Assembly (NCBI GenBank): GCA_944332475.1 | Contig: CALVKA010000002.1 | Location: 71,147-135,146, forward strand | DNA length: 64,000 bases | Source: an uncultured Bacilli bacterium | GTDB taxonomy: Bacteria > Bacillota_I > Bacilli_A > RF39 > UBA660 | Reading direction: 5' to 3' | Shown: positions 10,747 through 37,451 of the stretch, in pieces | How the letters are laid out: every line of letters begins with the position of its first letter | Numbering within the stretch: position 1 is the stretch's first letter | Translations under genes and position numbers: made by a program | Notes under the pieces: generated by a model | Told to the model about the DNA's origin: nothing | Databases searched by the model: none | Seen by the model: only the letters and a program-made list of their open reading frames with translations

Positions 10747-11943
10747 CTATTTAATATGATATGGTTTATTTTCAGTTCCCTTACCCTCACTAAATAAAAC
10801 ATTGCTATCTAACATCACTACTGGCCTAGGATACATATAACTAGCTGTAGTTGTATTTTCTACAACTCCACTAGAACTAACACCGTATGCCTCATCCGTT
10901 ACACCATTAACAGCAGTTACTAACCACCATTTATATGGAGCTGCTAAATAATTATAATTTTGACAAGAAAAATCAACAACAGTAGTACAATTAGGATCAA
11001 TACTTCCCATCATATAATCTGTAGCGGTAAGCAAACCAATCATTTGATCTTCTAATACTTCAGTACATTCTACAGAATTATCTTTAGTAGTATCATTCGT
11101 ATTTCTCTTACCAGTACATAAATCAAAAGAAACTAATTTACTACGATCATCATCACTCAAAATTATTCTATCTTCATCATCTGTATCATAAAGATCTTCT
11201 AAGGTGTCACGAATGCGACTTGCAGAAAATGTATTAATTCCCATATTATAACCAATATCAGAATTATATCGATTATCCCATGGAACAGATTCATACATAT
11301 CCCCATTTAAAATTAACATAAAATTTCCATCTTCTGTAATCTTAACGATTCTCCATAAAGAAGTTTCTAACTGTACATAGTTATTTACCTCTTCACCACG
11401 ATAAACATAAGTATCTCCAACTTGGTATAATCCATAACCTTCTGTAACAATATCACTAGTAACAACCTCAGATAAAGACTGAGTTACATAATCATCACCA
11501 CAATCAAGCCTTGGAACATACATATATCCATCCCCATTCGTTTGAACCGTAACTTGACCATCACAAGAAGTATCTTCACCCATATATTCCGTCATTGGAT
11601 CCATATATTCAGAAGCAGCCAAAGTTGCAACATCAATTTCAACTCTTTGACTTTCTGATTGTGGTAAACGTTTAGGATTATCTTCAAAATAAGCCTCAGC
11701 AGCATTTACCATAATATTCTCAATATCATCATACGTATAAGTTGGCGTCATAAAAACAGAAAGAAGAAATAAAACTAACGCTATTACAACGACAATTCCC
11801 AGTATAATTCCACCAAACAAAATTAATTTTTTTCTCAACTCATTATTGGAACCTCCAGATTTACTAGACTTACTAGATTTACTTTTTTTAGTTTCACTAG
11901 TATCAATTGCATTAAAACTACCAACATTAAAACTTGCAGCCAT
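10747..11943 (-). CDS. membrane-anchored extracellular protein, last gene of the T4SS/Tad supercluster
   Basis: 398 aa. Ser/Lys-rich cytoplasmic head, one TM, Asp/Tyr-rich ectodomain. It ends with ...RPVVMLDSNVLFSEGKGTENKPYHIK, which is shared with the 610-aa protein at 34051..35883. Confidence 0.6.
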   Translation of the reverse strand: MAASFNVGSFNAIDTSETKKSKSSKSSKSGGSNNELRKKLILFGGIILGIVVVIALVLFLLSVFMTPTYTYDDIENIMVNAAEAYFEDNPKRLPQSESQRVEIDVATLAASEYMDPMTEYMGEDTSCDGQVTVQTNGDGYMYVPRLDCGDDYVTQSLSEVVTSDIVTEGYGLYQVGDTYVYRGEEVNNYVQLETSLWRIVKITEDGNFMLILNGDMYESVPWDNRYNSDIGYNMGINTFSASRIRDTLEDLYDTDDEDRIILSDDDRSKLVSFDLCTGKRNTNDTTKDNSVECTEVLEDQMIGLLTATDYMMGSIDPNCTTVVDFSCQNYNYLAAPYKWWLVTAVNGVTDEAYGVSSSGVVENTTTASYMYPRPVVMLDSNVLFSEGKGTENKPYHIK

Positions 11944-11953
11944 ACTTTACCTC

Positions 11954-14380
11954 CTAATTGTCAAAGAAGTCATCGAAGAATTCATCGTCATCTTCTTCAT
12001 CATCTAACACTAAATTATTAGCAACAGATGAAACTTCTTTCTTATCATCCTTTATATCTATATCTTTTTCTTGATTAGAAGCAACTGCTTCATTCACTTC
12101 TAGAACAGAAGACTTCTTCTCAACAGTTGATTTTAGGTTAATATCTTCTTTCTCCTTATCATCTGCTGGCTTAGCCACAGAAGTTGTTGATTTTTCCTTT
12201 AATTCATTTTGTTTCTCTTCCTCTTCTAACTCAGCAATCTTAGCGTCAATTTTACGAACCAACTCATCAACATCAAATCCAAGTCCACTATCATTAGTAG
12301 GTTGATTTATTTGAGGATGAGACTGAGGCATACGAGGAGTACCTGTAGAAATAGGATTTCTAGCATCCGTCATTGGTATTCCCACTTGCCTATCGTTTTT
12401 CTCGACAAAAGAATTATCTTGACTAGGTGCAAATGGATTAACAGGTGCCATAGTATTCATATTTGGCATACCATTCATTCCAGACATTCCCATATCAACT
12501 TGAGTATTAGGACGTGGTCTTGCTCCTCCCATCGTAGAATTAGGCATAAATGGATTTCTAACATTACTATTTCCACTCATTTGAGGAAAAGCACCAAACA
12601 TATCCGGATTAGCACCACCATTATTATCAGTAGAATTCATCATTTCCAATAACTTCTTTTTCTTCTGAGCCTTGACAAATTCTTTAATATCAAAAGTATG
12701 AACAGAGATTTTCTCACGCGTTGGATAAGTAGCCTTTGGATAAGTACGTCCCCAATCTAACTTAAAATATGGAGTAAACTTAGTTTTAAAAGGCTGTTTT
12801 CTCATTCTCAAAATAATAACTTCAAACTGTTTCATACGTTGTAAATCAGAAACAGTAACCAAAGGTGTAGAAGCAGTTTTATCATCTTTTTTAGATTTAA
12901 CCTCTCCACACATCTTAGAAATTTCTTCTAAAGCTTTTAATTCCGTTGTAATCAAATAAATAATATTACCACAGTTACCACGAATAGTTTCTGCATTTTC
13001 TTTACCATATACTTGATCAAGCTGAGCAAAGTTCTGAATAATCATTGTAAAACGAATGTGTCTAGAACGAGCCGCTGTAATCATAGTAGTTACATCCTTT
13101 AAAGGCGGCATATTAGCAAACTCATCAAGTAAAAAGTTCGTACGAACAGGAAGCTTTCCACCATGTTCCTGCGCAACACCAATTAAAGTTTCATAAATCT
13201 GTTTCAACAAAATAGTAACTAAAGAATGATACGTCTTCTTTTCATCCTGAATAACGATAAATACTGCAGTAGGTCTTTGACCAATACTAGATAAATCAAT
13301 ATCACTATGAGAAAGCATCTCACTCAAGTTTTCACGAGAAGCAAATAATTTTACTTTCTGTTTAAATACAGATAAAATAGAACCCTTGGTCTCCGTAGGA
13401 GCCATAATCGTACTAGAAGCATTAATTGCCGCTGGACTTGCTGGATCTTTAGCAGCAAAGTACTCCTTAATATAAGTACTACCACCAAACTTTTCTTCAC
13501 CTACAGTTGTTGCCAAAGAAATACTATTAATATTAATTTCATCTTCCTTCGCGTCTTCAAATAGACCTAACGCAACACCTGAAAAATAATCAGCAGATGT
13601 TTTTTCCCAGAACGGATCTGCATTCTGATTAGATTCATCGTACAAAATATTTAAAGCTAAATCATCTAATAACTCGATTGCTTTATCTTGGTTACCAGAC
13701 TTATACATTTGATAAGGCAATGTCATAGGATTCCATGCATTACCATTTTGAGGATCACGGAAATTCAAAAGTAAAATTTGATAACCACGAGAACGCAACA
13801 TATTACTAGTCTTTTCATAAATCTCACCCTTAGGATCTGTAATAATCATAGACTCACGAGCCTTAGCTAAACTGTGTACAAGAGGCAAAATAACAGTCTG
13901 TGTTTTACCAGAACCAGTAGCACCAATAACTAAAGAATGATATTCACTATTATCTACCCACATCTCATTCTCATTCAAAATAAGAGGAACCCCGGCAGAT
14001 TTTGAATTTGCCTGTTTAATTTCAACTCGATCTAACTCTTCTTTAATCTCTTTTTCTTTGGCCCATCTTGAATAACCCTTATCTTTTTTATCTGTAGTAA
14101 TACCAAAACCTTTTTCACGTTCGAAAAAGTAAGAACTAACGCTAACCATTAAACCACCCAAAGCAAGGAAATAAAATACTAAGGTAGCCATAATGTATTT
14201 AGGTCCAAAAGCTGGGAAAGGATTAAGACCAACCAAATAACCTTCGGTAGCAAAAGAAGATATGTTTAAAACACCTATACAAACAATATATAGTAAAAAC
14301 AAAGAAAAAAGGACAAACATCCATATATCTTCTGGATCTGCTCTAAATTTAAATTTCATACGATTACTTCCTTTCGCCAA
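11954..14380 (-). CDS. VirD4/TraG-family type IV coupling protein (T4CP) with a long low-complexity C-terminal tail
   Basis: 808 aa. Two N-terminal TM helices, Walker A VIGATGSGKTQTV, Walker B ...NFLLDEFAN.... C-terminal Met/Pro/Asn/Gly-rich region (MGMSGMNGMPNMNTMAPVNPF) and acidic terminus DDEEDDDEFFDDFFDN. Confidence 0.85.
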   Translation of the reverse strand: MAKGSNRMKFKFRADPEDIWMFVLFSLFLLYIVCIGVLNISSFATEGYLVGLNPFPAFGPKYIMATLVFYFLALGGLMVSVSSYFFEREKGFGITTDKKDKGYSRWAKEKEIKEELDRVEIKQANSKSAGVPLILNENEMWVDNSEYHSLVIGATGSGKTQTVILPLVHSLAKARESMIITDPKGEIYEKTSNMLRSRGYQILLLNFRDPQNGNAWNPMTLPYQMYKSGNQDKAIELLDDLALNILYDESNQNADPFWEKTSADYFSGVALGLFEDAKEDEININSISLATTVGEEKFGGSTYIKEYFAAKDPASPAAINASSTIMAPTETKGSILSVFKQKVKLFASRENLSEMLSHSDIDLSSIGQRPTAVFIVIQDEKKTYHSLVTILLKQIYETLIGVAQEHGGKLPVRTNFLLDEFANMPPLKDVTTMITAARSRHIRFTMIIQNFAQLDQVYGKENAETIRGNCGNIIYLITTELKALEEISKMCGEVKSKKDDKTASTPLVTVSDLQRMKQFEVIILRMRKQPFKTKFTPYFKLDWGRTYPKATYPTREKISVHTFDIKEFVKAQKKKKLLEMMNSTDNNGGANPDMFGAFPQMSGNSNVRNPFMPNSTMGGARPRPNTQVDMGMSGMNGMPNMNTMAPVNPFAPSQDNSFVEKNDRQVGIPMTDARNPISTGTPRMPQSHPQINQPTNDSGLGFDVDELVRKIDAKIAELEEEEKQNELKEKSTTSVAKPADDKEKEDINLKSTVEKKSSVLEVNEAVASNQEKDIDIKDDKKEVSSVANNLVLDDEEDDDEFFDDFFDN

Positions 14381-14414
14381 TTATTATAACATCAAAAAAT
14401 CATATCGTCATTAA

Positions 14415-15197
14415 TTATTGATTAGAAATTTTAATTTCAAACGCATTATCACGAAATTCGTATAACATAGCAACAGGAGTTTGATTACTATATTTTGCAC
14501 AAGTAAGAATAAGTTCATTATCTTGATCATTATCTAAATCTGCAACTGTATACAAATTCGGCATACAACCATTAACACCTTCATTGACATCAACATCTTC
14601 ATAAAGCATATAAATAGTATCATCATCTACCATAAACACAAAAGAGAAATATTTATCGGGGAAAAAGTCCATAGCAAAGACATTACTAATAACATAAAAA
14701 TTTTCGTCTACCCCATCTTTATCAAAATCCAAACTAGAAACAGTTGCTAAAGTATACTGTGAGTCAGGCGATAATCCATGTTCTTCTAAAACTTGCCTAG
14801 CATAAGTATAATCAGTAATATCCGTAGTCTCATAAGAAAGAATATTCATATCAAAATCAGCTTGATAAGCAAATAATTCTCCTTGATAAGAGACAGATTG
14901 ACGATTTTCATCGAATATATACCACTCATCATCATTCCATACAAGATAATCACCTAAATATTCATGATCAATATAAACATGAAAACTTTGCCAATTAAGT
15001 TTAGATAGCAAACTCGGAGTGGTAACATTCATCCAGTTTCTAGAAGAATAATCCCAAACAGCAGCATCACCTACCAAAATAGTAGTACTAGCTTCTCTTT
15101 CTCTAGTCTCAGAAACACCGAATGCTAGATACATACAAACAGCATAAATTACCAAAATCAGAATAATTACAATATATTTAAACTTACCCTTTTTCAT
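14415..15197 (-). CDS. membrane-anchored protein, possibly a VirB8-like (Tn916 Orf13/TcpC-position) component
   Basis: 260 aa with an N-terminal signal-anchor (MKKGKFKYIVIILILVIYAVCMYLAF). It is positioned directly after the cell-wall hydrolase as Orf13 is in Tn916. The assignment rests on position and topology only. Confidence 0.4.
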   Translation of the reverse strand: MKKGKFKYIVIILILVIYAVCMYLAFGVSETREREASTTILVGDAAVWDYSSRNWMNVTTPSLLSKLNWQSFHVYIDHEYLGDYLVWNDDEWYIFDENRQSVSYQGELFAYQADFDMNILSYETTDITDYTYARQVLEEHGLSPDSQYTLATVSSLDFDKDGVDENFYVISNVFAMDFFPDKYFSFVFMVDDDTIYMLYEDVDVNEGVNGCMPNLYTVADLDNDQDNELILTCAKYSNQTPVAMLYEFRDNAFEIKISNQ

Positions 15198-15210
15198 ATC
15201 GCATCTCCTA

Positions 15211-17535
15211 TCACGCTACACGAAAATATGCATACTGACTAGTATTTCGCCAATCATATTGACTCCACATACTAGTTGACTGACTGGCTGGATCCATCAT
15301 AAGAACATTATTACCATTAATACCATCAACGGCAACCCAGTGTTGACCTGTACTACCTTTTACTTCCGCAACAACATAGTATCCTTGATTTAATAAATTC
15401 TGCAAAGAAGATAATTTTTGAGCTTGTGATTGACCAGAAACACTAACCTTACCAACATATTGAAAGTCAGGAGCAACATCACTAACCTTCCACCATCTAA
15501 AATTAGCGCCTTCAAAACCACCCACACGATTTAATGCCTGAACAAAAGTTCCTGGATTAAAATCACCATCCACATTAACTGCTACACCACTCTTAGCAAT
15601 CAACATAGAAACCGAAGTAACCAAGCAACCAACCTCTGCTATCGTACGTCTAGTATTACCGATTGTAATACTACCCCAGGCAGAATCTGCTTGTTTCCAA
15701 CCAGCATAAGGACCCGTACTTCCTGTACTATTACATCCACTTCCAGATCCTGTATTACAATTCATTTCATCAATATCAGTAGCAGCACCATATACTTGCA
15801 TTAAGATTTGCTTATAATTTAACCCCTGATTAGCCAAAGAAATAAATCGATTTTGGGTACCAGAAGCATAATTAGCGGAAACGATATTTCCCTGTTCATT
15901 TACCAATACTTCCCCCATCGTATCATTAGCAAGAGTACGCATTTTATGATCAGCTGCAAGAGGTTGCTTTAAAACGACAGCTTGATCCGTACCACTACGA
16001 ACGGTACCATATTGTTCTCCATCATTCATAGCAGAACACCCTAAATCAGGATTACAATAAACTTGATCAGCAACACAAGAAGAAAGCTGTAAAATCCATT
16101 GTCCATTCTCTTCTTCTAACTTTTTACCATTACCATTGTTCATAGCGGTAGGTCTAGCCAAAGAAAAGCTTCTAGCAGCAACCATCTGTGCTTTAATAGC
16201 TTCATCAGGTGCACTAGGACCAATTTCCTGATAAGCAACTCCAAGAATATAAGTTTCAAAAGGAACTAACTCTTCCCCTTCTAAAGGCTCATTCCAACTT
16301 CCACTACCATAAGGACTAGCACATTGCATCAAACGAACCTTTAAATCCGTAATCGTCATAGAAGCACTAACATTACCCAAACTAGAAATATAAAATCCTT
16401 TAATTTCATAAACACAAGAACCTAAACTTGCACAATCTGAACTAGTTTCACCAATTAAACTATAATAAGAATCATAATATTCCATAACTTCATCCGCCAT
16501 AGCCTCATAAGTACTTTGACTTCGATCAGGAAGATAAGTTGGAAATATATTATTAATTAAATTTTGTTTAAATGTATCCTCACTAAAACTATTACCAGAA
16601 AACATAGCATTGGCTATATTAGTAATAACATCAGTAGTCATATCATTATAGGAAAGTGTTGCACCATGTTGTTTCAAAATACTATATACAGCAGAAATAT
16701 ATACAACATCTACAGATTTTCCTTGAGATTGTAATGTCCCTTTAACAGCAGCAACACGCTCAAAAAATTCGCTAGCTTCTGGATCTGAACTCGAATAATC
16801 AATACCACCTGTAGCTCCACCTGATGCCTCACTAACACCAAAAGCATCGTCATAACTGGAAATAACACCACTACCTTGAGCAATAACAAGAAAAAGTATA
16901 ATAAGGAAAAAACCACCCGCAACAAAAGCTCCAATAGCAAGTTTTGCCGGAGTGATAGTCCCAATCCCTTCAAACATAGTGTCCAAAGGACTCTTCTCTT
17001 GTTTTTGGTTATCATCATCTAAAAAATTAGGTTTAGATGGTCTTCTTCTCCCTACACTCTCTTCTCCATCAGAAACAGATTGAGTACCAGATGGAAGAGT
17101 ATTCCCCGCTCTATTAGGAATAGAAAGTTCAGAACCACCCATATTCTTAGGATCTTGTGTCGCAAGATCAGTTGCTTTATTCGCAGCATCTAAAGCACCA
17201 CTATCATTTGCTTTAGATAAAGCCTTACGAGCAAAAGGATTTTTGGCAAGATTTTTTCCAAGTTGTTGACCAATCTTAGATTTACCAATCGCATCTCCAA
17301 CTTTAGCCCCTACTTTAGCTCCAGCCGATCCACCAAAATAAGCACCAACGACTGCTCCAGCTGTTTTTCCAGCTTTTTGAACCCCTTCTTGAGCAGATTG
17401 TTTTTCATGCTCTTTTTTTTGTTCTCGTGCAGCTTGATATGTTTGAGGTTGCTCCGTGCCAGCAGCCTGGTTTGCACTATCATCGCTACGTACTACACGA
17501 TTACCATTTAAATCATTACCTTTCATCACTGGCAC
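15211..17535 (-). CDS. bimodular peptidoglycan hydrolase: N-terminal Gly/Ala/Lys-rich region and TM, SpoIID/LytB-like domain, and C-terminal papain-like (peptidase C39-like) domain
   Basis: 774 aa. ...EAIKAQMVAARSFSLARP... is SpoIID-like. The C-terminus ...GCLVTSVSMLIAKSG... and ...GQHWVAVDG...MMDP fits a Cys/His peptidase C39-like fold. T4SS loci of Firmicutes encode such hydrolases (CwlT, TcpG, Orf14). Confidence 0.65.
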   Translation of the reverse strand: MPVMKGNDLNGNRVVRSDDSANQAAGTEQPQTYQAAREQKKEHEKQSAQEGVQKAGKTAGAVVGAYFGGSAGAKVGAKVGDAIGKSKIGQQLGKNLAKNPFARKALSKANDSGALDAANKATDLATQDPKNMGGSELSIPNRAGNTLPSGTQSVSDGEESVGRRRPSKPNFLDDDNQKQEKSPLDTMFEGIGTITPAKLAIGAFVAGGFFLIILFLVIAQGSGVISSYDDAFGVSEASGGATGGIDYSSSDPEASEFFERVAAVKGTLQSQGKSVDVVYISAVYSILKQHGATLSYNDMTTDVITNIANAMFSGNSFSEDTFKQNLINNIFPTYLPDRSQSTYEAMADEVMEYYDSYYSLIGETSSDCASLGSCVYEIKGFYISSLGNVSASMTITDLKVRLMQCASPYGSGSWNEPLEGEELVPFETYILGVAYQEIGPSAPDEAIKAQMVAARSFSLARPTAMNNGNGKKLEEENGQWILQLSSCVADQVYCNPDLGCSAMNDGEQYGTVRSGTDQAVVLKQPLAADHKMRTLANDTMGEVLVNEQGNIVSANYASGTQNRFISLANQGLNYKQILMQVYGAATDIDEMNCNTGSGSGCNSTGSTGPYAGWKQADSAWGSITIGNTRRTIAEVGCLVTSVSMLIAKSGVAVNVDGDFNPGTFVQALNRVGGFEGANFRWWKVSDVAPDFQYVGKVSVSGQSQAQKLSSLQNLLNQGYYVVAEVKGSTGQHWVAVDGINGNNVLMMDPASQSTSMWSQYDWRNTSQYAYFRVA

Positions 17536-17557
17536 AAAACATCACCACCTCAATTAA

Positions 17558-19348
17558 CTAAAAACCACCACCAGAGCCAAATGAGTCTAGCTCATCTCTT
17601 GTAACGGCTACATTAATACGCATACGTCTATTTCCACAGACAAATAACGCTTCACCTTGAGAATATCTCTTAATACTTTCTTTTTCATTATCATTTAAAT
17701 CAATTAATTTACTCAAATCTTCAACAGCCTGTTTTCTAAGACCCATGACCAAATAATAAGAAGCATTATCAAAAATTGCCTTACCATGCACAATAACAGC
17801 TGGATCAGCAAAATCACTTGGTTGTTGTGTAATAATAATAGTTCCAGTATTATATTTACGAGCACGTCTTTGAACTTGAGCCAAGAACTCTGCACCAAGT
17901 CTATTATTAGAGCCTAATAAAACATGCGCTTCATCAACCATTAAAATCGTATCAACATTAAAGTCCAAACAAAGTCCCCATGCATACTTCAAAACATTAA
18001 AGAACAAAGCATCACGAATATTAGAATCCGTATTCATTAACTCTTTAATATTAAATACCATAAAATCACTATCACGACGAATTGTAGTATGTCCATCAAA
18101 ATAGAAACGCAACTCTTTCGTAATAGGACGAATTTTTAACTCCAAACGCTCCATAACATCACGTTCTTTTGTTTGCTCTGTCATGGACATCAAACGACCC
18201 TTAATCGTCGCATAAACATCTGAAAACGTTGGATAATCCTTAGAACTAAAGCCAGAAAAATCTGTATTAAAATCAATACCAAAACGTTTATACGTATCCT
18301 GAGCAACATCACTAAACATAGTCAAAACGTCTTCTTCAATCGTAGGATCATAATAAGTTAAAAACGCTTTTAAAAATTGCAAAGTACGAGTTAAAACTGT
18401 ATAACCCAAACCTTGCTTAATCTCCTCTTCATCCGCATCAATAACAATTTCAAGTGGATTTATCATACCAAATTCTCCACCCTTACCAATATCAATTGTA
18501 TCTCCGCCATAAGTTTGAGTAATTTCTCTCAACTCATCTTCAGGGTCAATCGCAACAATTTGACAACCGTTACGAATATGAGTACGAAGTAATACTTTCG
18601 CAGCAGTAGATTTACCAGATCCAGAGGTACCAAGAATAATCATATTAGCATTATTACGGTTATTTTCTTTACGAATCTTATACAAGAACTGATTAAACAA
18701 AATAACACCACCAGAGAAATCTACACCAAGTAAAGTAGAAAGTCCCGGATCTTTAATACTATCAAAAATAAATGGATACATAGCAGCAATTGTAACAGAC
18801 GGAATTGGTGTACCAATTCTTTGTTCTACATCTTGAGGAGGAAAGATTGGTAAAATACTTTTTAATACTTTTTCCTGTTCAAAACGTAAAGAAATCGCCT
18901 TTAATTCCATTGCATCCAAATAGTTTTTAACATTAACTTTCTTCATTTCTAATTCTTCTTTAGTATCAGCCGTAATCATAATGTGCATTTGAAAATCAAA
19001 AATACGAGCCTGACTACCAGCCAACATAGAAGTAAAATATTCCAAACTCTCAGCATCCTGACGATATCTTTCACGCATCGTCTGATCACGTTCATGTTGA
19101 TACTTTTCTTTTAAATCTGCAACTTGTCTATTTAACATTTTAGACATAGTTTGAAAAGGAACCGGAATGTGTTTAACAACAACCTTAATACCAGGCATAT
19201 TGGTTAACGATGATAAATACCCAGGTGTAATATATTTAGGATAAGAAACAACTGTCATAATAGTTGCATACTTATCACTAATAAAGAAATCACTAGGATT
19301 AAAACTAAGCCCTTTAGGAGCCAACTGACTTCTTAAGCTTGTACTCAT
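17558..19348 (-). CDS. VirB4/TraE-family conjugative ATPase, C-terminal ATPase portion (split gene)
   Basis: 596 aa. Walker A GTSGSGKSTAAK, Walker B ILMVDEAHVLL, RA-box region. Its ATG overlaps the stop of the upstream ORF (ATGA). A GGTGA SD lies 8 nt upstream. Confidence 0.85.
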   Translation of the reverse strand: MSTSLRSQLAPKGLSFNPSDFFISDKYATIMTVVSYPKYITPGYLSSLTNMPGIKVVVKHIPVPFQTMSKMLNRQVADLKEKYQHERDQTMRERYRQDAESLEYFTSMLAGSQARIFDFQMHIMITADTKEELEMKKVNVKNYLDAMELKAISLRFEQEKVLKSILPIFPPQDVEQRIGTPIPSVTIAAMYPFIFDSIKDPGLSTLLGVDFSGGVILFNQFLYKIRKENNRNNANMIILGTSGSGKSTAAKVLLRTHIRNGCQIVAIDPEDELREITQTYGGDTIDIGKGGEFGMINPLEIVIDADEEEIKQGLGYTVLTRTLQFLKAFLTYYDPTIEEDVLTMFSDVAQDTYKRFGIDFNTDFSGFSSKDYPTFSDVYATIKGRLMSMTEQTKERDVMERLELKIRPITKELRFYFDGHTTIRRDSDFMVFNIKELMNTDSNIRDALFFNVLKYAWGLCLDFNVDTILMVDEAHVLLGSNNRLGAEFLAQVQRRARKYNTGTIIITQQPSDFADPAVIVHGKAIFDNASYYLVMGLRKQAVEDLSKLIDLNDNEKESIKRYSQGEALFVCGNRRMRINVAVTRDELDSFGSGGGF

Positions 19349-23605: not shown

Positions 23606-23697
23606 CATTGCCACCACTCCATATATACAATCATACAGAATAAGTATAACAGAATAAAAAAAAAATAGCAATTACTTTGCTATTTAATTTATAAACT

Positions 23698-29850: not shown

Positions 29851-30318
29851 CTATCTAGCATCAATAGATTTACCAAAGTCACTATCTGTATTTTCTAGTT
29901 CGTTGGAAACCAAAGGATCATAATCATATGTATTTTCCAAAATAGCATCGACTTGAGTACTCATTTCCAAATTATCGCCTTCAAAACTTAATACGGTAGA
30001 AGAGTCGACTTTAACACTTACTTTAGGTGGAACTTCATTCAAATCATAAAAAGACAAATGATAATTTCTTGTAGTATCAACAGAATCAGCAAATCTTCTA
30101 ATAAAACTTTCCACAAACTTTTCTTTGTCCATACGAAGCAATCCATTTTCACGATAATATTTAACATCAATTGCATCAACCATAGCTGCTTCACTAGTTT
30201 CCTTCACCAGGTAGTAATCTAACTCACTACCTGATGAATAATTGGAAATAATATTTATCATCAACAAAGTTGCCAAACTTAGAATAATAATACCAACAGT
30301 TAACATCGCTTTATTCAT
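29851..30318 (-). CDS. small membrane-anchored protein (possible minor pilin or assembly factor)
   Basis: 155 aa. N-terminal TM MLTVGIIILSLATLLMINIISNY. Confidence 0.45.
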   Translation of the reverse strand: MNKAMLTVGIIILSLATLLMINIISNYSSGSELDYYLVKETSEAAMVDAIDVKYYRENGLLRMDKEKFVESFIRRFADSVDTTRNYHLSFYDLNEVPPKVSVKVDSSTVLSFEGDNLEMSTQVDAILENTYDYDPLVSNELENTDSDFGKSIDAR

Positions 30319-30324
30319 AAGTTA

Positions 30325-33255
30325 TTATGCCCCCTCTCCTTCATTATTAACACCAGGTGTACCACGTTCTAATACAACACTACTACCAAGATCTGTTAAT
30401 AAATCACTAACATAAGAAGTTACACCATTTTTATTTGTAGTATCCCCACCATAATCTGTATAACCATCCATCTCAGCATTATACTCTCTAATATTCCTTA
30501 AAATCTCTGTACTCAATTCAATTTCATAATCCAAATATTTATCATTGCCATAAATTGAATTACCACGTTCTTGAATCGTATTAATCAAAGCCAATGGATT
30601 AATTATATAACCACTATTTTTATTATCCTTAAGGAAATCACTAAGATTATTAGATTCATCTATAGTAGTTGTACCTAGTGTCCAGTTATAACCAGGTTGA
30701 CGACCAGTAGTTGTACCACCAATTACAATATTACTCTTATTAGAATCAGTAGTCGTAGAACCCTCAGGGAATAAATTATTCAAATCAACAATTCTAAATG
30801 TATAATCCCGAACTGAAGTAGTATCACAATCAGGATCTCCTGGAGTACAAGAATCTCCACCACCATCTGTCGTTGGGCATCCATTTTCATCTAAACTTGT
30901 CGTCTCATTCTTTAAGCCATAGAAACATTTAATATTAAATTCCCATCCGAAATAACCAAAATCAGAAGTAGAAGCATGAATATTATAGTTGATGGAATCT
31001 TCTATCTCGTTTCTCGTATAACAAGTATCATTTACTTCTTTCCATTCCCACCATTTAACATTCGTACTTTGAGCATCTAATGGCATACAGAACTTATCCT
31101 TTTGATAATGCCATGCACCAGAATTTTGTGGTGTACTAAATTGAATTTCACCAGTTTTATTATTGATATATGTTCCTGGAAAACTCCAAGCCGCTTCATA
31201 CCAATTTTGAGCATCACTACTGTTATAACATCCAGAATAACCATCTTCATTATCTGTATCAATAGTCAACTCTGGAATAAAGATTTCAGTACCAGAGGTA
31301 GAACCACTAGAACCATCACCATGACTCTCTAGCGTTGCATTATCAACACCAGAACTTGTCAATGGAAAGTCAACCGTAACTGTATTTCCTTCACCATTGA
31401 TATAATCAACACCAATAGTGAAAGTACCAGTCTTCGTTGTACAACTTACTCCTGCCTCACAAGTTTTTTTAGCTGCATAATATCTATCTAAATTATCAAT
31501 ATAATCTTGAGCTGCCTTAGTATCGTTCATATAACTTTGCCCTTTAGGACATCCTGTCCAATAACAAGGGTCAGCACATAACTGATTACCACGGAAATTC
31601 TGACGTTTAAATCCTTTATAATCTGGTAAATATTTTCCAATACCTCCTACATGATAATAATCATGTTCTCTACTGGTTCTACCAGCTTCATTTTCTTGAT
31701 ACCAACGACCATAAGTAGCATAGCTTCGACTACTTTTCCAATAAATTGAATTACCACTCCAATAATAATAACCATCATAGCCAGGGAAACTAGAGGCCAT
31801 TTCTTCCACTGCAGCATCACCATAACGAATCGCTAATGGGTCATAGCTAGCATCATCATCACCATAAACTTCATCATAACATTTTTGACTACATGCATCA
31901 CTATATTCTCCACCATCACAGTTCATAATACAAGTATCAAAAGTATCATTAGGACCGCCTTGATGCGTCCTACCTGGAATATAGTTACAGAACGGTGTTG
32001 GCGTACAAATAGATTTTTTCTCTGGCATAGGAACATCAAATTTTGATGAACATACAACCCTACTAGTAACTCGAACTTTATATTCGAAACATAGTCCTGC
32101 TTTAGATGCAACCGGAGCACCATACTCAACAACAACAGCCTCTTCACAAATTCTATTACAAGAACCAGCATACTCATTTTCAGGATCTTCAGCACCATCA
32201 TAATTATATGTATAATAAACTTCCTCTTTCACCTCTTCAGATGCATAATAATAGTCTTTATTTACATAGTAATCGCCGTCTTCTTCTGGCTGTAAATCCC
32301 AATCACATGCCAAATCAAAAGAACGATTAACACGACCATCTGTTGCTGTATATACATGGCCAAGAGCCTCAGCTTTAGACTTTGCATCATTAAACGCCGC
32401 ACTAAACTCAGGAGTAACTGGTGTAGATTCAGAAGAAGGGCCGGTCTTAACAATTCGAATTGCAGAAGCAATCAAAGAAACGACTTGCTCATCAGTATAA
32501 TCAAAATCAACCCATTTATTAAGACAATATGACATAATATTATTATAAGTCACTTTCTGAGTCTCACTTACTGCATTATAATTATATTTTTGAATTAATT
32601 CTTCACTAACTTTGTTACCAAAGATATCAGCATAATTAGAATATCCTTGTCCTGTTCTAAAAACAGCACAAATACCATCATAATTTGTATTTTCTACCTG
32701 CTCACGTTGATCTTTAATAGGATTTAGGGTTAACTCAACACTCATCTCATAGGTTCCGACTTTTTCACCATCAGAATTTGTAGTTGCTGCATCATAAGAC
32801 AAACATTTTTCATCAGATTCTGCCAATACAAAATTAATCGTAACAGTACCATCAGCCCCATCAGTAATTGGAATTGTAAAAGAATTATCTGAAGTCAAAT
32901 TACCAAGCTCTGTTGGTTCAACTGTAATCATATTATGATAATCAACACTATTTCCATCATCATCTACAGCACTAACACCAACAACTCTAAAACTACCATG
33001 ATTTGTACTAATAACCTGAGAATTATTAGCATCAGGAGCAACAGAAACACCATAATAAGAAGACATTGCATCAGTATTGGTACATTCTTCTCCGGTTGTC
33101 GTTGGAGCAATGGTTTCTGTTCTATTTACTTCTGCCGTCTCAGAGGAATGAAATGCATTATAAGCACTACGAACACCAATGAAAGCAGCAAAAACAAAAG
33201 CTATAAATAATACCCCTAAAATTATTCTCTTACGCTTTTTCATTGTTTTCTCCAC
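30325..33255 (-). CDS. giant secreted or anchored Cys/Tyr/Gly/Asp-rich surface protein (candidate adhesin or pilus-associated protein)
   Basis: 976 aa. Signal-anchor MKKRKRIILGVLFIAFVFAAFIGV. More than 25 Cys. No LPXTG motif and no C-terminal TM. Confidence 0.7.
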   Translation of the reverse strand: MEKTMKKRKRIILGVLFIAFVFAAFIGVRSAYNAFHSSETAEVNRTETIAPTTTGEECTNTDAMSSYYGVSVAPDANNSQVISTNHGSFRVVGVSAVDDDGNSVDYHNMITVEPTELGNLTSDNSFTIPITDGADGTVTINFVLAESDEKCLSYDAATTNSDGEKVGTYEMSVELTLNPIKDQREQVENTNYDGICAVFRTGQGYSNYADIFGNKVSEELIQKYNYNAVSETQKVTYNNIMSYCLNKWVDFDYTDEQVVSLIASAIRIVKTGPSSESTPVTPEFSAAFNDAKSKAEALGHVYTATDGRVNRSFDLACDWDLQPEEDGDYYVNKDYYYASEEVKEEVYYTYNYDGAEDPENEYAGSCNRICEEAVVVEYGAPVASKAGLCFEYKVRVTSRVVCSSKFDVPMPEKKSICTPTPFCNYIPGRTHQGGPNDTFDTCIMNCDGGEYSDACSQKCYDEVYGDDDASYDPLAIRYGDAAVEEMASSFPGYDGYYYWSGNSIYWKSSRSYATYGRWYQENEAGRTSREHDYYHVGGIGKYLPDYKGFKRQNFRGNQLCADPCYWTGCPKGQSYMNDTKAAQDYIDNLDRYYAAKKTCEAGVSCTTKTGTFTIGVDYINGEGNTVTVDFPLTSSGVDNATLESHGDGSSGSTSGTEIFIPELTIDTDNEDGYSGCYNSSDAQNWYEAAWSFPGTYINNKTGEIQFSTPQNSGAWHYQKDKFCMPLDAQSTNVKWWEWKEVNDTCYTRNEIEDSINYNIHASTSDFGYFGWEFNIKCFYGLKNETTSLDENGCPTTDGGGDSCTPGDPDCDTTSVRDYTFRIVDLNNLFPEGSTTTDSNKSNIVIGGTTTGRQPGYNWTLGTTTIDESNNLSDFLKDNKNSGYIINPLALINTIQERGNSIYGNDKYLDYEIELSTEILRNIREYNAEMDGYTDYGGDTTNKNGVTSYVSDLLTDLGSSVVLERGTPGVNNEGEGA

Positions 33256-34039
33256 CTTTCATAAGTTTATCAATTTCATCATAATTACTTGTCTTCTCTA
33301 CTCCATAATTTACTTTTGTCTCACCTTCACGAACCATTCTAGCATCAACCCGAATCTCCCGAGTCGAAAAAGCACCAAATAATCTTGTACAAGTAATTAA
33401 TGAAATCAACTTATCATTTTCATTTACATCTATATTAAACTTAAAGATACTATCTTCAAGGGATTGCTCAATATACTCTTTCATTTCTTCTTTAGTAAAA
33501 TTCTCTTCTACAAACACATCTGTATCACCATACTCTGGAAAACTAACTGCATATACTTCATATACATAATCTTTACCATTGTAAGTATATTGAATAAATT
33601 TATTATCTTTGACAAAATCCAAATATATAAAACTCATCAACGATTCAAAGCGAACAGAATCATCACTTGCCATTTTAGGATTAGCAGACAAATTGGTAAT
33701 ATTATGACCAGTAATATTAACTTTATTTAGAACCTCATCTGTTTTTACTTCATTCCAAGCAAAATTATTAGTCATACCATCGAAATCATATCCAGGTGCA
33801 TAAATAACTGGATAATCAATATTCGTACCCTGTACTCGAACCCATCCAATAGTTTCATAATTTTTTGTATCATTTTTCGCTTCCTCTTCTACTTGTTCCG
33901 CCCTTGGTTCTACAGGATAATAATCATAAAAGACAACAAATAGAATAGCACTTAATAAACATAAAAAAGATAGAATTCCTATAATGAGGAAAACTTCCTT
34001 TTTTTTCATTATTAGCTTCTCACTTCTTATTCTTCTCAT
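33230..34039 (-). CDS. sortase-family transpeptidase (class B-like), putative
   Basis: N-terminal TM. Candidate His (VNITGHNI), TLxTC-like Cys motif (LISLITCTRL) and a downstream Arg (IRVDARMV). The track start is a GTG at 34051, so the ATG at 34037 or 34009 is more likely. Confidence 0.45.
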   Translation of the reverse strand: MRRIRSEKLIMKKKEVFLIIGILSFLCLLSAILFVVFYDYYPVEPRAEQVEEEAKNDTKNYETIGWVRVQGTNIDYPVIYAPGYDFDGMTNNFAWNEVKTDEVLNKVNITGHNITNLSANPKMASDDSVRFESLMSFIYLDFVKDNKFIQYTYNGKDYVYEVYAVSFPEYGDTDVFVEENFTKEEMKEYIEQSLEDSIFKFNIDVNENDKLISLITCTRLFGAFSTREIRVDARMVREGETKVNYGVEKTSNYDEIDKLMKGGENNEKA

Positions 34040-34050
34040 GTCATCACCCA

Positions 34051-35883
34051 CTACTTCTCTATAATATATGGATCTTCAATAGTTCCTTTACCACGAACAA
34101 TAACACATTGCTTGTTAAAGAACGCTACTGGTCGAATACCAAAAGCATCATAATCATAAATTTCTCCATATAGTACTGTTCCTATATCTGACATAATTGC
34201 TTTCGTATATGCTCTTCTAGAAGAATTGATATACCAATAAGAAAGCATTGTAGAAGAATTAAAATCATGTGCACTAAACATCTCATACATATCAGGAGCA
34301 GCAAAACGAACTTTATAAGTCTTAGTTGTTGCCTCTTCTCCATATTTAATATTTCTCTTATAAATAGGAACTTCTATCTCTTTATTCACAAAATAATCAG
34401 AATCGATATATTCGGGAACTGTATTGTTAATAAAGTATCCTACATTACCTCTTTGTTCAGGATTATAAACTTTTGATTCATTATCTGTCTCATAGTAAGT
34501 TTCAACCGGATTATTTTCACTATCATAAAGCGTCGTATCTGCAATAACTTTTGTTGTTCCATCATCTTGCGAATCAACGACTCTCCATAACATACCAGAA
34601 TAAGAAACATATTCACCACTTTGTCTAGTATTCAATTTATCTCCAGCTTTACCAGTTTCGAAATCTCCAATAGAATAAGGATTATCTTCACTACCATCAC
34701 CATCAACTACTAAGGCATCACCATTAATTGTCAACGCTGGTCGAACTCCAAAGTTATAATTTCTATCAAATCCCATAAAATATGTAGTTGCAACATAATA
34801 GAAGAACGATCTAGTACCATAAGCATTCGTATCATCTTTTCCATTACTTACCCAAGAAATACTTTCAGGATATAAATAATTATAACCATCAGCATCTGTT
34901 GCTTTATTATAATCTTGAGCAGATAAGATAGATACCGGAACTTTATCCGTATAAGAACTACAATCCATAGCAGTAGAAATATTTTGATCTGTTAATGTAT
35001 CATTACAATACTTACTATATACAACATAATCTTTTGATTCATCTGCTATATGATCATAATAATATTCCAACCACTCATCAATTGCATCATAATTAACATT
35101 ACTAACATCTTGTTCAGCAACAATTCTTACATTATCACCATCAAGGCCAACAATTCTAAATACCATACCAGAAAAATACATATAGTTATTTGAAACATTT
35201 CCCTGATAAACTTTTGCGTCTCCAGTATCCTCTTTTACAACACTAGATAAAGTAGATACTACATTAACTTTTCTAACAACTTCTGTTTTATTTCTTAAGC
35301 TATCATAAGCCGTATAAGTAACATCATAAGTACCAGTAACATTCGTATTAACATCACTAGAATCAATTTCTACATCTTCAACATCCATTCTACCATCAGA
35401 GTTATCAACAACGCTTTTAACACCTAATTCTTCATACTTAGATCCACGATCAATGGTAATCTCATCATCACCATTCAAAGTAATTTCAGGGCCCTTATGA
35501 TCAACAATAGAAGAAATAATACCGCATTTTAAATAAACATAATATTTATATTCCCCATCTTCTCTTCTTACTTTTACCCAACTTTCCGTAATAGAACAAG
35601 GACTATCAGTAAGTGGAACATAAAAATCTTCTTTCAAATAAGCCTGATCAAATAACTCCTGAACACTTAAAGTTTTTACCCTAGTTCCAGTAGGCAATTG
35701 CCTTTCATTTAATTCATAATATCTCTTTGCCGCATTCTCAACTTCCCTTTCATACCCCTTAAATGTTATCAAAGGATGAATCACTAAAAACCATAAAAAC
35801 AAAGCTACAATAATGACAACACAAGCAATTTTTAAATATTTTACCAATTTCTTGTGATCAGAAACAAACTTTTTCAAATCCAT
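34051..35883 (-). CDS. membrane-anchored surface protein with an Ig-like (DUF5011-type) domain and two copies of an RPx...GxG(T/S)xExPYxI motif
   Basis: 610 aa. N-terminal TM. ...HKGPEITLNGDDEITIDRGSKYEELGVKSVVDNSDGRMDV... is Ig-like. Internal RPALTINGDALVVDGDGSEDNPYSI and C-terminal RPVAFFNKQCVIVRGKGTIEDPYIIEK. Confidence 0.65.
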   Translation of the reverse strand: MDLKKFVSDHKKLVKYLKIACVVIIVALFLWFLVIHPLITFKGYEREVENAAKRYYELNERQLPTGTRVKTLSVQELFDQAYLKEDFYVPLTDSPCSITESWVKVRREDGEYKYYVYLKCGIISSIVDHKGPEITLNGDDEITIDRGSKYEELGVKSVVDNSDGRMDVEDVEIDSSDVNTNVTGTYDVTYTAYDSLRNKTEVVRKVNVVSTLSSVVKEDTGDAKVYQGNVSNNYMYFSGMVFRIVGLDGDNVRIVAEQDVSNVNYDAIDEWLEYYYDHIADESKDYVVYSKYCNDTLTDQNISTAMDCSSYTDKVPVSILSAQDYNKATDADGYNYLYPESISWVSNGKDDTNAYGTRSFFYYVATTYFMGFDRNYNFGVRPALTINGDALVVDGDGSEDNPYSIGDFETGKAGDKLNTRQSGEYVSYSGMLWRVVDSQDDGTTKVIADTTLYDSENNPVETYYETDNESKVYNPEQRGNVGYFINNTVPEYIDSDYFVNKEIEVPIYKRNIKYGEEATTKTYKVRFAAPDMYEMFSAHDFNSSTMLSYWYINSSRRAYTKAIMSDIGTVLYGEIYDYDAFGIRPVAFFNKQCVIVRGKGTIEDPYIIEK

Positions 35884-35894
35884 AATTTCTCTCC

Positions 35895-37451
35895 TTATTT
35901 AACCCTATAAACATACTTTCGATTTCTCACCGTATACACCAACCGAATCTCATTAGCATTTTGTAAGGCATCAGGAACCTCAATATACATATAATTTCCA
36001 TTATAGCTATGATTAACAGCATCTATTATTTCTACATCCTGACTTTTACCTTTACTATCTATATAAACAATTTTACCATATTCCGTCGAAAAGTCAACGA
36101 AATCTTCACCAGTAAATGTATCAGAAGTAAAGAACAATTGTAAGATTAATTTACCACTCTTAGCATCCAAATCATTAGAAACAGCCGCACAATTATTAAA
36201 TGCAATACAAGACCTTGTAGTATAAGTCGTATGCTCTAACAAATTAGCTTCCTCAATAGAAAAATTAATCTCATCATCACCAACTTGCATCGTTTCATTT
36301 TCTAATAGAACTTTAGTTTTTTGTTTTTCAATCTCAGAAAGATCTTCTACATTTAATTTAATTTTTCTTAAATATGGTTGATTATTTTCAATTTCTTGAT
36401 AATAAAGAACAAATCGATTCGGATCCAAATCTTTATCTACTTTAAAAATCATAATAAACCTTTGAGACTGACCGTTACTTAATGTAAGTTTTTCTAAAGA
36501 CCTTCCCATATCTTGAAAAGCAGTAGCATAAGTTCGATAAGTCTGAGTATAATTCCCTCTTCCGTTCATAATATGGAAGCGATTAAAATTAACATCCCTT
36601 TGTGTAGCATTATTCGTAATAGTTAAATCTAAAACAACAAAATCACTATCTTTAGAAATAATTTCTCCGCGATAATCTTTATCCGTGAAATAAGAACGAT
36701 TAATTTGAATCGTATAACCATTAGTAGAAATACTATCTCCCTGATTATAAGAACGATGTACGATAAACACCAATCGATAAATAGATACAACACAAACAAT
36801 CAACAACAAAGAAACAACCGTATTGACCAATAATCGATGTTCCTGATAAAAATAACCGAGATTACGTTTCAAACGTTTGAATGTTCTACGAAAACTCTCT
36901 TTATCAATATTGACACTAATCTCAATTTCTTCTCTATCTTCATTACTTAACTCTAAAAATTCTTTATCAGACTTAAAATCAAACTTATTTAAATCCAGAC
37001 CAAAAATACGCATCAACAAAATGATAATAATAACATATTGAGGAAGTGTACCTATAAATAGTAAATCCCCAATGGCTCGAATCCCAGTCGTACCAGATGT
37101 ATCATTATATCCAGAAAAAAGAGAAATCGTTAATACAAAAGCAATAAATAAAAAGGCATAAGAAACAAGTGGAATAACATATAACTTCCATGGCTTCTTT
37201 TTATGTCGCAATAATACCACCAACGTAAAAGACAATACCACAAGACCAATTAATACCAATAATGACAATACGCTAGCATAACGAGTAATAGGTTCATAAT
37301 AAGGATCATAAGACCGTAACTCCAAAAACTCAGAAACAAAAGAACGTGTCTGCATACATTTATAATATATATAGACACTTAAAACAAGCATAAAAATATG
37401 AATTCGTCTAAAATGCTTAATTAAAAATGCATACGGTTTTCTAATAATCAT
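35895..37451 (-). CDS. polytopic membrane protein with a large C-terminal soluble domain, first gene of the supercluster
   Basis: About 518 aa from MIIRKPYAF (ATG at 37449..37451 with a GAGGGTG SD; the track starts at an upstream GTG). Four to six N-terminal TM helices. Confidence 0.6.
   Translation of the reverse strand: MIIRKPYAFLIKHFRRIHIFMLVLSVYIYYKCMQTRSFVSEFLELRSYDPYYEPITRYASVLSLLVLIGLVVLSFTLVVLLRHKKKPWKLYVIPLVSYAFLFIAFVLTISLFSGYNDTSGTTGIRAIGDLLFIGTLPQYVIIIILLMRIFGLDLNKFDFKSDKEFLELSNEDREEIEISVNIDKESFRRTFKRLKRNLGYFYQEHRLLVNTVVSLLLIVCVVSIYRLVFIVHRSYNQGDSISTNGYTIQINRSYFTDKDYRGEIISKDSDFVVLDLTITNNATQRDVNFNRFHIMNGRGNYTQTYRTYATAFQDMGRSLEKLTLSNGQSQRFIMIFKVDKDLDPNRFVLYYQEIENNQPYLRKIKLNVEDLSEIEKQKTKVLLENETMQVGDDEINFSIEEANLLEHTTYTTRSCIAFNNCAAVSNDLDAKSGKLILQLFFTSDTFTGEDFVDFSTEYGKIVYIDSKGKSQDVEIIDAVNHSYNGNYMYIEVPDALQNANEIRLVYTVRNRKYVYRVK

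Follow-up and report, generated by a model that had tools for sequence, protein, structure and literature searches.

We analyzed a 64-kb stretch of DNA (64,000 nucleotides, hereafter the window) from an uncultured bacterium of the Bacilli order RF39 and found in it a 26.7-kb operon-like block at positions 10747-37460, where 22 intact open reading frames (ORFs), all on the minus strand, join the parts of a type IV filament to those of a type IV secretion system (T4SS). We put the probability that this block builds one contact-dependent cell-to-cell translocation apparatus in RF39 at roughly 0.7. By sequence comparison the block appears to hold four groups of parts: pilin-like surface proteins together with a sortase-like enzyme, a Tad-like type IV filament module, a T4SS resembling the mating-pair formation class FATA (MPF_FATA), and a set of unassigned proteins. 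The Tad-like half consists of a DUF5411 protein, CpaB, an ATPase of the FlaI/CpaF clade, two platform paralogues with the GspF/PilC fold, a 65-aa pilin and a protein with the TadZ fold. The T4SS half consists of VirB2-like hairpin proteins, VirB6, a TrsD-like protein with VirB4, a SpoIID/C39 hydrolase and VirD4.

The genes are named g01 to g22 in order of transcription, with g01 at the 37460 end and g22 at the 10747 end (Table 1). An earlier description made from the letters and their translations (the sequence-only reading) had proposed a single block of 22 co-directional genes, and all 22 are indeed present on one strand. The block start that it gave, 37451, is also the probable true start of g01, since homologues align from residue 4. 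The tight spacing that it reported is observed as well, with -92 to +73 bp between ORFs; its mention of several ATGA overlaps was slightly overstated, as the g17/g18 junction is the single true case. The g02/g03 and g08/g09 pairs overlap by 1 nt, and two longer overlaps hinge on the start codon chosen. Terminator-like and promoter-like sites are no more frequent than in shuffled sequence, and none is prominent in any intergenic gap of the block. GC content is 30-38% in the block and 29-31% in the flanks, a mild shift without a sharp boundary. As the sequence-only reading had also stated, the flanks are core genes, with rhodanese, DedA and RmuC past g22 and GreA on the g01 side. The largest family of direct repeats in the block (D1) has copies at 13891-13925, 18598-18632 and 28510-28544, within the VirD4, VirB4 and g07 genes; over 35 nt, the copy in VirD4 shares 86% identity with that in g07. 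These repeats reflect DNA likeness among three ATPase genes, probably at their Walker A regions.

The VirB4, VirD4 and VirB6 assignments of the sequence-only reading stood up in profile searches, which did not move them to other families, and the Ig-like surface protein, the secretion ATPase, the two-transmembrane (two-TM) hairpin protein, the two-ORF VirB4 and the SpoIID/C39 hydrolase also drew profile evidence, which is weak for the hairpin. Specifically, g21 matches Pfam T4SS-DNA_transf (E=1e-55), as well as TraG-D_C and TrwB_AAD_bind, and scores 302.9 bits against NCBIfam conju_CD1115, over the cut-off of 250. The last ~12 residues of this VirD4 protein, DDDD(E)FFDDFFDN (11954-12000), are invariant in five species (including L087-L090) and follow a 200-residue low-complexity linker that is not conserved, which argues for a conserved docking partner and suggests that the tail is a candidate docking motif. 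It recalls the acidic, Phe-terminated tail of the F plasmid protein TraD, which binds TraM. The VirB4 ATPase g18 scores 345.6 bits against NCBIfam VirB4_plasma and 171 bits against CD1110, both under the equivalog cut-offs, and matches the solved VirB4 structure 4ag5 in the Protein Data Bank (PDB) with E=1e-54. In the VirB4_plasma model g17 covers positions 100-276 and g18 positions 294-891, and g17 homologues have the TraC-like family PF26593 on record, which fits a TrsD plus VirB4 layout. g17 is a separate ORF in 62 of 62 loci of different species and the ATGA junction ATGCCxGTATGAGTA (window 19340-19355) is kept throughout, indicating a genuine two-gene arrangement; the near-invariance of these nucleotides implies that the two genes are probably coupled in translation. 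A frameshift or pseudogene as the origin of the split is ruled out by the same conserved junction. Thus the split VirB4 of the sequence-only reading does comprise two ORFs, and the split is a conserved layout, which PMC12102498 has already recorded in Patescibacteria and in MPF_FATA systems of the pGO1 type. The assignment to type MPF_FA is to be replaced by MPF_FATA-like, given that the nearest VirB4 family is that of mycoplasma integrative and conjugative elements (ICEs) and that a TrsD-like ORF is present.

The remaining T4SS parts are membrane and wall proteins. g15 reaches 27.5 bits against Pfam TrbL_4, at the cut-off, and its homologue in a more distant lineage (L127) likewise matches TrbL_4. 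g19 contains a SpoIID lytic transglycosylase domain (Pfam E=4e-10) and Peptidase_C39_2 (E=2e-5). Matches to T4SS_pilin (PF18895) are weak throughout, at 17.8-21.4 bits, with 17.8 bits for g13; in a scan of the mixed family A8 this domain was found in 12 members, which are attributed to the g14 family as a group without a per-member breakdown. By hhalign the g13 hairpin matches the C-terminus of g14 with probability 99 and the N-terminus of u10, a protein encoded ~20 kb away, with probability 98, and the relation among all three lies at 97-99. g16 and g20 have the size, topology and position of VirB3/PrgI-like and VirB8/PrgL-like proteins, respectively; g20 has no Pfam, NCBIfam or PDB-profile match and is conserved at 28-72% identity.

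The filament half was likewise assigned part by part. g07 matches Pfam T2SSE (E=1e-27), and in PDB searches FlaI (2.8e-20) and CpaF (2e-19) come ahead of VirB11 (8e-15), while its top NCBIfam matches are VirB11 and TadA, all under cut-off. g06 has weak matches under cut-off to Pfam RcpC (21.7 bits) and to TIGR03177 cpaB (30 bits), and its 31%-identical homologue in L127 has PF16976 on record, which gives transitive support for CpaB/RcpC. The sequence-only reading left the g05 gene unnamed in spite of its strong match; DUF5411 is a marker of a Tad-like operon family in gut Firmicutes, and g05 has the same position as the DUF5411 gene of a stand-alone operon described below (L137). TadB was recognized by fold, and TadC by its paralogy to TadB: the g08 and g09 families (A3 and A5) align by hhalign with probability 94.6 (E=6.6e-8, 172 columns) when a diverse g08 profile is used, and with probability 7, which is no match, when the profiles are restricted to RF39. 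g09 has no direct family match, and ten distant relatives of g08 found none in Pfam. The pair of single-domain T2SSF-type platform proteins that characterizes Tad systems is therefore present as g08 and g09. The candidate pilin g10 begins with an invariant MK(A/E)ATGELN(L/M)TV followed by a hydrophobic helix in an alignment of ~40 species, and g11 has a conserved MRDAxGG leader ahead of a hydrophobic helix and lacks the Flp G/XXXXEY motif; for g11 and g05 the likeness to pilins is one of topology only. TadZ was also recognized by fold, in that the AF2 model of g12 (pLDDT 83.6) matches HypB/MinD-type ATPases in Foldseek, along with the two-domain E. rectale protein 3fkq (E=5e-5), which we take to be the published E. 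rectale TadZ structure. A sequence-profile search of the TadB-like, TadC-like, TadZ-like, 976-aa and 260-aa families against PDB sequences gave nothing significant, and 134 family members scanned singly against Pfam gave no T2SSF, PrgI or VirB8-like match.

Surface proteins lie at both ends of the block. g02 contains a Bact_surface_Ig-like domain (Pfam E=1e-13) and is a paralogue of g22 (hhalign probability 100), and the membrane-proximal domain common to g02 and g22 is found again in u8, a canonical type IV prepilin encoded outside the block (hhalign probability 96.7 for g02). Many g22 homologues have PF19789 on record, and g22 is always followed by rhodanese-dedA-rmuC. At the other end, g01 scores 21.7 bits against Pfam DUF4352, under the cut-off, and its homologues (40-71% identity) always stand at the head of the block, adjoining greA in most species. 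The sortase-like g03 and CpaB are both retained from the sequence-only reading with matches under cut-off, in the case of g03 Pfam Sortase at 24.8 bits (cut-off 26.6) and TIGR03064 srtB at E=3e-14, far under its own; H, TC and R motifs are visible in its sequence, and a canonical C-terminal sorting signal was found in no protein of the window. g04 has no match in Pfam, NCBIfam or PDB-profile searches, has ~20 Cys that are invariant across 19 species, and evolves fast (25-57% identity between species). A disulfide-rich extracellular protein of this size is unusual in a strictly anaerobic Gram-positive bacterium.

We used the TadZ-like g12 to follow the block across genomes. It has 5,539 homologue clusters at 90% identity and is found in 248 species of a one-genome-per-species collection; the statement that the block is RF39-wide refers to these 248 species matches and to 80 loci that were inspected. 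Those 80 loci come from uncultured gut metagenome-assembled genomes (MAGs) labelled Bacilli, Tenericutes or Mycoplasmatota, including Candidatus Faecimonas and Ca. Onthousia, of which Faecimonas corresponds to the GTDB genus CAG-877, family CAG-611, order RF39 (PMC8035907). Identical copies of g12 are found on 1.42-Mb contigs and a 58%-identical copy in a circular 1.52-Mb MAG. When all 22 proteins were searched by tblastn, the gene set and its order were the same in the 80 loci wherever the contig was long enough. Identity across species is 80-97% for VirB4, 65-94% for the TrsD-like protein, 66-95% for the ATPase g07, 66-96% for the platform proteins, 57-86% for the TadZ-like protein and 32-73% for g02, as compared with 81-99% for GreA in the same genomes. 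The motor and channel parts thus roughly match GreA in conservation, and the exposed proteins evolve fast.

The site of the block is conserved together with its content. In four species whose g22 is only 44-69% identical, the downstream genes are (rhodanese)-DedA-RmuC-214aa-TrpRS/trigger factor/Lon as in the window, and in most of 35 metagenomic loci (g01 40-71% identical) U32-U32-HD-GreA directly precedes g01, again as in the window. Across species, strong purifying selection acts on the whole block at this one locus, and these data support its being a vertically inherited, chromosomally fixed locus of RF39 as judged from synteny and identity. Inheritance of this kind at one fixed site gives it the look of a core contact or transfer machine and not of a mobile element. 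The sequence-only reading had proposed a fixed, repurposed apparatus kept at one locus in place of a conjugative element, and the gene-for-gene match in 80 RF39 species, the same housekeeping genes at both ends and the lack of any plasmid match to g12 agree with that proposal. The same data bear on whether the block is a decaying, functionless remnant of an ancient integrated conjugative element, as its missing mobility genes and apparently split VirB4 might suggest. We regard this as extremely improbable, because all 22 reading frames remain intact in 80 species and VirB4 shows the identity given above, and because the split is an ATGA-coupled pair in every one of 62 loci that matches the known TrsD plus VirB4 arrangement. 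Conservation and flanks together effectively refute such a remnant.

We also searched the window for signs of mobility. Pfam scans of essentially all of its ORFs of at least 80 aa revealed no relaxase, integrase, transposase or replication initiator, and neither tRNA genes nor direct repeats bracketing the block (att-like) nor an oriT-like repeat were found in the window. The lack of relaxase, integrase and replication genes is in line with the sequence-only reading. Besides the block, the ORFs of the window encode housekeeping or surface proteins, namely Lon, trigger factor, TrpRS, RmuC, GreA, U32 peptidases, MltG/YceG, RuvX, a rhomboid protein, a hybrid kinase, an RluD-like protein, LspA, DnaE and a DUF285/VWA/LRR protein. 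g12 has no match among 72,556 plasmids; VirB4 has matches on 2,238 plasmids of Firmicutes, most of them conjugative, with identities that do not exceed 29%. The block thus appears related to conjugation machinery but is no known plasmid or ICE.

These results also bear on the proposal that the block is a true conjugation system for the transfer of chromosomal DNA between RF39 cells, with a relaxase and an oriT that are situated elsewhere or escape recognition. Such a system would be a special case of the translocation apparatus, and we consider it a serious candidate that nonetheless falls on the unlikely side. A VirD4 that passes the cut-off of a conjugative coupling-protein family and matches TrwB_AAD_bind, a VirB4 whose nearest curated family is mycoplasma ICE VirB4, and homologues on more than two thousand mostly conjugative plasmids all speak for it, as does the precedent of mycoplasma ICEs, in which no canonical relaxase is known and which nevertheless bring about chromosomal transfer. 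Against it stand the lack of a relaxase, an oriT-like repeat or a DNA-processing gene in 64 kb, and the analogous system of Patescibacteria, which is thought to have been co-opted for non-conjugative roles (PMC12102498).

We next consider whether the two halves form one unit. In one distant locus (L137, GC 26%) the gene order DUF5411-CpaB-ATPase-TadB-TadC-52aa-135aa leads on to a gene for a 1,305-aa protein, no T4SS gene being in view, and a DUF5411/CpaF/PilC operon has been described in Roseburia, Ruminococcus and Eubacterium (PMC9523054), indicating that the Tad-like module is an evolutionary unit in its own right, which became linked to a T4SS in the RF39 lineage. In a second group of loci (L127-L136; GC 29%; g08 31% and g12 43% identical) the order is RcpC/CpaB-TadB-TadC-TadZ and then directly TrbL_4/VirB6, with no ATPase or pilin between TadZ and VirB6. 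This reduced arrangement adjoins a ribosomal-protein/ECF-transporter cluster. Seven of the ten contigs shown for this group extend as far as the VirB6 gene, and all seven break off within it, which suggests a repeat or hypervariable tract within the VirB6 gene of that lineage.

Two uncoupled systems lying side by side, one a Tad-like adhesion pilus with adhesins and a sortase for gut colonisation and the other a separate T4SS, would accommodate both the stand-alone operon of PMC9523054 and the T4SS-free unit of L137, which runs from DUF5411 through CpaB, the ATPase, TadB and TadC to a pilin and a pseudopilin. However, adjacency and order are kept in every RF39 locus long enough to show both halves, the gaps do not exceed 73 bp and terminators are not above chance, the paralogues g02 and g22 bracket the whole block, and TadZ abuts VirB6 in L127; we therefore think side-by-side systems rather improbable. 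The Tad-T4SS join is tight and old and is present in all RF39 loci examined. This conserved join, together with the TadZ-VirB6 adjacency of L127 and the g02/g22 paralogues at both ends, favours, short of proof, a functional integration of both halves over chance adjacency.

For the T4SS half the closest described system is that of Patescibacteria (Quinonero-Coronel et al. 2025, PMC12102498), which is chromosomal, relaxase-less and MPF_FATA-derived and is essential for epibiotic growth of Southlakia. The two have in common their MPF_FATA ancestry, a chromosomal, widespread and vertically conserved locus in a reduced-genome lineage with no relaxase nearby, a TrsD-like ORF beside VirB4, several VirB2-like PF18895 paralogues (weak matches here), a wall hydrolase, and VirB3/VirB6/VirB8-type membrane parts, of which VirB3 and VirB8 are positional assignments in RF39. 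They differ in that the RF39 host is an order of Bacillota predicted to be walled, that VirD4 is in the operon whereas it is mostly distant in Patescibacteria, and that the RF39 T4SS is fused into one block that also holds a complete Tad-like module, a sortase-like gene, and genes for pilin-like adhesins; PMC12102498 reports none of these. That paper presents type IV pili only as separate collaborators and does not mention Tad, sortase or RF39.

This likeness raises the possibility of an effector-delivery or resource-acquisition machine used on other cells, bacterial or host, in the manner of epibiotic Patescibacteria. In its favor are the features in common with the Patescibacteria T4SS (chromosomal and relaxase-less, TrsD plus VirB4, multiple PF18895 VirB2-like paralogues), the small RF39 genomes (1.42- and 1.52-Mb contigs) and the fast-evolving surface proteins that are typical of partner recognition. 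We judge it unlikely, in view of the lack of candidate effector or immunity genes in the block, the prediction that RF39 are walled fermenters (PMC7301438, PMC10868615), and the coupling protein, which is dispensable in S. epibionticum (PMC12102498) as opposed to operonic and conserved here.

Among described systems, the filament half comes closest to the 'secretion-related' DUF5411 operon that Miller et al. (2022, PMC9523054) found in gut Clostridia; these Firmicutes likewise carry DUF5411, a CpaF-type ATPase and a PilC/GspF-type platform, in an operon of 8-9 genes. That operon stands alone, whereas its RF39 counterpart runs on into a TadZ-like gene and a full T4SS. The locus resembles Tad/Flp systems (type IVc; Caulobacter Cpa, Aggregatibacter Tad) in its ATPase of the CpaF clade, its pair of platform paralogues with one domain each, its CpaB-like and TadZ-fold proteins, and the pseudopilin-like gene that comes after the gene for a very short pilin; unlike them it has no G/XXXXEY motif, no prepilin peptidase at the locus and no T2SSF, TadE or Flp sequence match, and it carries a DUF5411 gene. 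With the MPF_FATA T4SS of Gram-positive plasmids and ICEs and of mycoplasma ICEs (pGO1 Trs, pCF10 Prg, CTn-type CD1110/CD1115 and the Mbov_0397 family) it has in common VirB4, TrsD, VirB6 (PrgH/TrbL_4), a wall hydrolase and a CD1115-family VirD4, and in such conjugative systems surface adhesins, and sometimes sortases, travel along. Unlike them the RF39 locus is fixed, has no relaxase, oriT, integrase or replicon in the window, resembles its best plasmid VirB4 at only 29% identity, and has extra VirB2-like hairpins and a Tad-like module. A precedent for cooperation between a filament and a T4SS is found in IncI plasmids (R64/TP114), where a type IVb thin pilus stabilises mating pairs and variable tip adhesins set partner specificity; unlike the RF39 locus, these systems are diderm, plasmid-borne and relaxase-dependent and use other filament and T4SS classes.

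Because the locus lacks the Flp motif and a local prepilin peptidase, as expected of Tad, and a relaxase and mobility, as expected of a conjugative element, we file it as a domesticated composite of two known kinds, which belongs to neither the Tad nor the conjugative family and is not categorically new either. We found no description of the fused RF39 system in open-access and bioRxiv literature on RF39 with T4SS, pili, competence or epibiosis. The suggestion that its composition is undescribed thus holds for the fused system and not for its components, as relaxase-less chromosomal T4SSs (Patescibacteria) and the DUF5411/CpaF/PilC operon (PMC9523054) were already known.

If the block does build a single translocation apparatus, its parts could act as follows. 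g07, g08 and g09 would assemble a filament of short pilins, which TadZ would position and which, with CpaB, would span the wall. The filament and the fast-evolving pilin-like surface proteins (g02, g22 and g04, possibly processed by the sortase-like g03) would then bind a partner and pull it close. Most RF39 are predicted to be walled (PMC10868615), and the SpoIID/C39 hydrolase g19 may open the peptidoglycan locally. TrsD/VirB4, the VirB3-like protein, VirB6 and the VirB2-like hairpins g13 and g14 would form the conduit, and VirD4, via its invariant acidic FFDDFFDN tail, would recruit a cytoplasmic substrate for export.

That VirD4 is conserved and operonic favours the export of a substrate from the cytoplasm over a simple uptake of DNA. 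A competence T4SS akin to H. pylori ComB or to archaeal Ced/Ted would share a chromosomal, relaxase-less T4SS with VirB2-like pilins, and weak NCBIfam matches to CedD and CedB and the nearby RmuC could be cited for it. The Ced matches are far under cut-off, however, no ComEC or DprA was found in the window, and to our knowledge ComB-type systems have no VirD4 coupling protein, whereas here VirD4 is conserved and operonic; we accordingly rate uptake as highly improbable. As for what the apparatus would carry, DNA or nucleoprotein exchanged between RF39 cells, analogous to the relaxase-poor chromosomal transfer of mycoplasmas, is our tentative first choice, at somewhat less than even odds, because of the conjugative-type coupling protein, the mycoplasma-ICE-like VirB4 and the precedent of relaxase-poor transfer in Mollicutes. 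Protein effectors or the acquisition of resources seem less probable, and the same holds for adhesion only or DNA uptake taken together.

Several observations weigh against a single translocation apparatus. The function proposed for it derives wholly from homology and conservation. The Tad-like module also stands alone (in L137 and in PMC9523054), so the modules could work independently. The VirB3 label of g16, the VirB8 label of g20 and the pseudopilin label of g11 are positional, with no family match even in family-wide scans; these labels and that of an Flp-like pilin had been given in the sequence-only reading, and all four agree with size, topology and position and find no matching family. 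The g10 pilin in particular lacks the Flp G/XXXXEY processing motif in the alignment and has no Flp Pfam match, and a prepilin peptidase (A24 family or GxGD motif protein) was not found within the window. The sortase-like g03 is under the family cut-offs and has no recognisable substrate nearby. One RF39 sublineage (L108, L110-113, L117 and L118) differs upstream and lacks greA there, indicating that the locus is not absolutely invariant. Finally, a relaxase may lie elsewhere in the genome, and DNA export without a relaxase has no known initiating enzyme.

RF39 is an uncultured order of Bacilli, abundant in the gut of humans and animals, with genomes of ~1.4-1.5 Mb, of which the 26.7-kb block takes ~2%. 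Intact, in place and conserved like housekeeping genes across hundreds of species, it is very likely central to RF39 biology, and it offers a testable handle on chromosomal DNA exchange in RF39, on their attachment to or feeding on other cells, and on their resistance to cultivation. For the study of secretion systems, the block would add a second, independent example, Patescibacteria being the first, of a lineage with reduced genomes that has domesticated a Gram-positive conjugation machine. Judging from the open-access and bioRxiv literature, it would also be the first in which a single operon ties such a T4SS firmly to a type IV filament module. A bolder and rather doubtful extension is that RF39 live by obligate contact with other cells and that the fused Tad-pilus/T4SS is their core organelle, in which a retractile filament with hypervariable adhesins would dock on a partner and a VirB2-lined T4SS conduit would move nucleic acids or proteins; this would make it a single composite nanomachine seen nowhere else and the Bacillota counterpart of the Patescibacteria epibiont apparatus.

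Table 1. Genes of the block in order of transcription, and a nearby gene group (window positions).
Gene	Position	Strand	Product or proposed role
g01	35895..37460	-	521-aa membrane protein, ~4 TM, DUF4352-like extracellular domain
g02	34051..35883	-	610-aa membrane-anchored surface protein; pilin-like N-domain and Ig-like domain
g03	33230..34051	-	sortase-like enzyme, divergent, class-B-like
g04	30325..33255	-	976-aa Cys-rich extracellular protein, N-terminally anchored
g05	29851..30318	-	DUF5411 protein with N-terminal TM segment; Pfam DUF5411 E=3e-49
g06	29006..29824	-	CpaB/RcpC-like
g07	27530..28975	-	hexameric secretion ATPase, FlaI/CpaF(TadA) clade; low-complexity C-terminal tail
g08	26611..27513	-	TadB-like inner-membrane platform protein; GspF/PilC fold
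g09	25826..26611	-	TadC-like second platform protein, distant g08 paralogue
g10	25555..25752	-	65-aa Flp-sized pilin candidate
g11	25083..25535	-	150-aa pseudopilin-like protein; label from position and topology only
g12	24081..25067	-	TadZ/CpaE-like; receiver-like N-domain and MinD/ParA-like domain with degenerate Walker A
g13	23698..24033	-	111-aa two-TM hairpin protein, VirB2/T4SS_pilin-like
g14	22382..23671	-	429 aa; secreted Cys-containing N-domain and C-terminal VirB2/T4SS_pilin-like hairpin
g15	20212..22365	-	VirB6/TrbL-like polytopic channel protein; long low-complexity C-terminal tail
g16	19871..20188	-	105-aa two-TM protein in VirB3 position upstream of VirB4
g17	19345..19962	-	TrsD-like ORF, homologue of VirB4 N-terminal part
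g18	17558..19348	-	VirB4 ATPase, C-terminal two-thirds
g19	15211..17535	-	774-aa membrane-anchored peptidoglycan hydrolase; VirB1 analogue
g20	14415..15197	-	260-aa bitopic protein in VirB8/PrgL position
g21	11954..14380	-	VirD4 type IV coupling protein
g22	10747..11943	-	398-aa membrane-anchored surface protein; pilin-like N-domain and DUF6273-like C-domain; last gene of the block
u7-u10	42736..47253	-	four genes; possible satellite module outside the block

The four genes u7-u10 may be an accessory part of the same system. u7 encodes a 219-aa secreted protein and u9 a 261-aa bitopic protein. u8 (43389-45527) encodes a 712-aa canonical type IV prepilin with the processing site KG|FSLVE, a Pfam N_methyl match and a Cys-rich thrombospondin-like C-terminus, and u10 a 282-aa protein with a T4SS_pilin-like hairpin N-domain and an NlpC/P60 hydrolase domain (Pfam NLPC_P60, T4SS_pilin). 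By hhalign u10 is homologous to g13/g14 and u8 to g02/g22, and all four genes are kept upstream of greA in related species.

Elsewhere in the window, a gene flanked by those for the HD phosphohydrolase and the U32 peptidase (39970-40614) encodes a 214-aa Zeta-toxin/AAA_18-like P-loop kinase; only the closest relatives share it (68-70% identity), and species further removed lack it at this site. A SPOCS_spoVID-N plus LysM protein (1417-2181) and a YceG/MltG homologue (47853-48923) accord with published predictions, according to which peptidoglycan and some sporulation functions are retained in RF39. Finally, a gene on the minus strand that runs to the window end (60551-63997) encodes a surface protein of 1,148 aa, in which seven leucine-rich-type repeats of DUF285 ('Mycoplasma protein') come after a VWA domain; this fits a Mollicutes-related ancestry of the organism.

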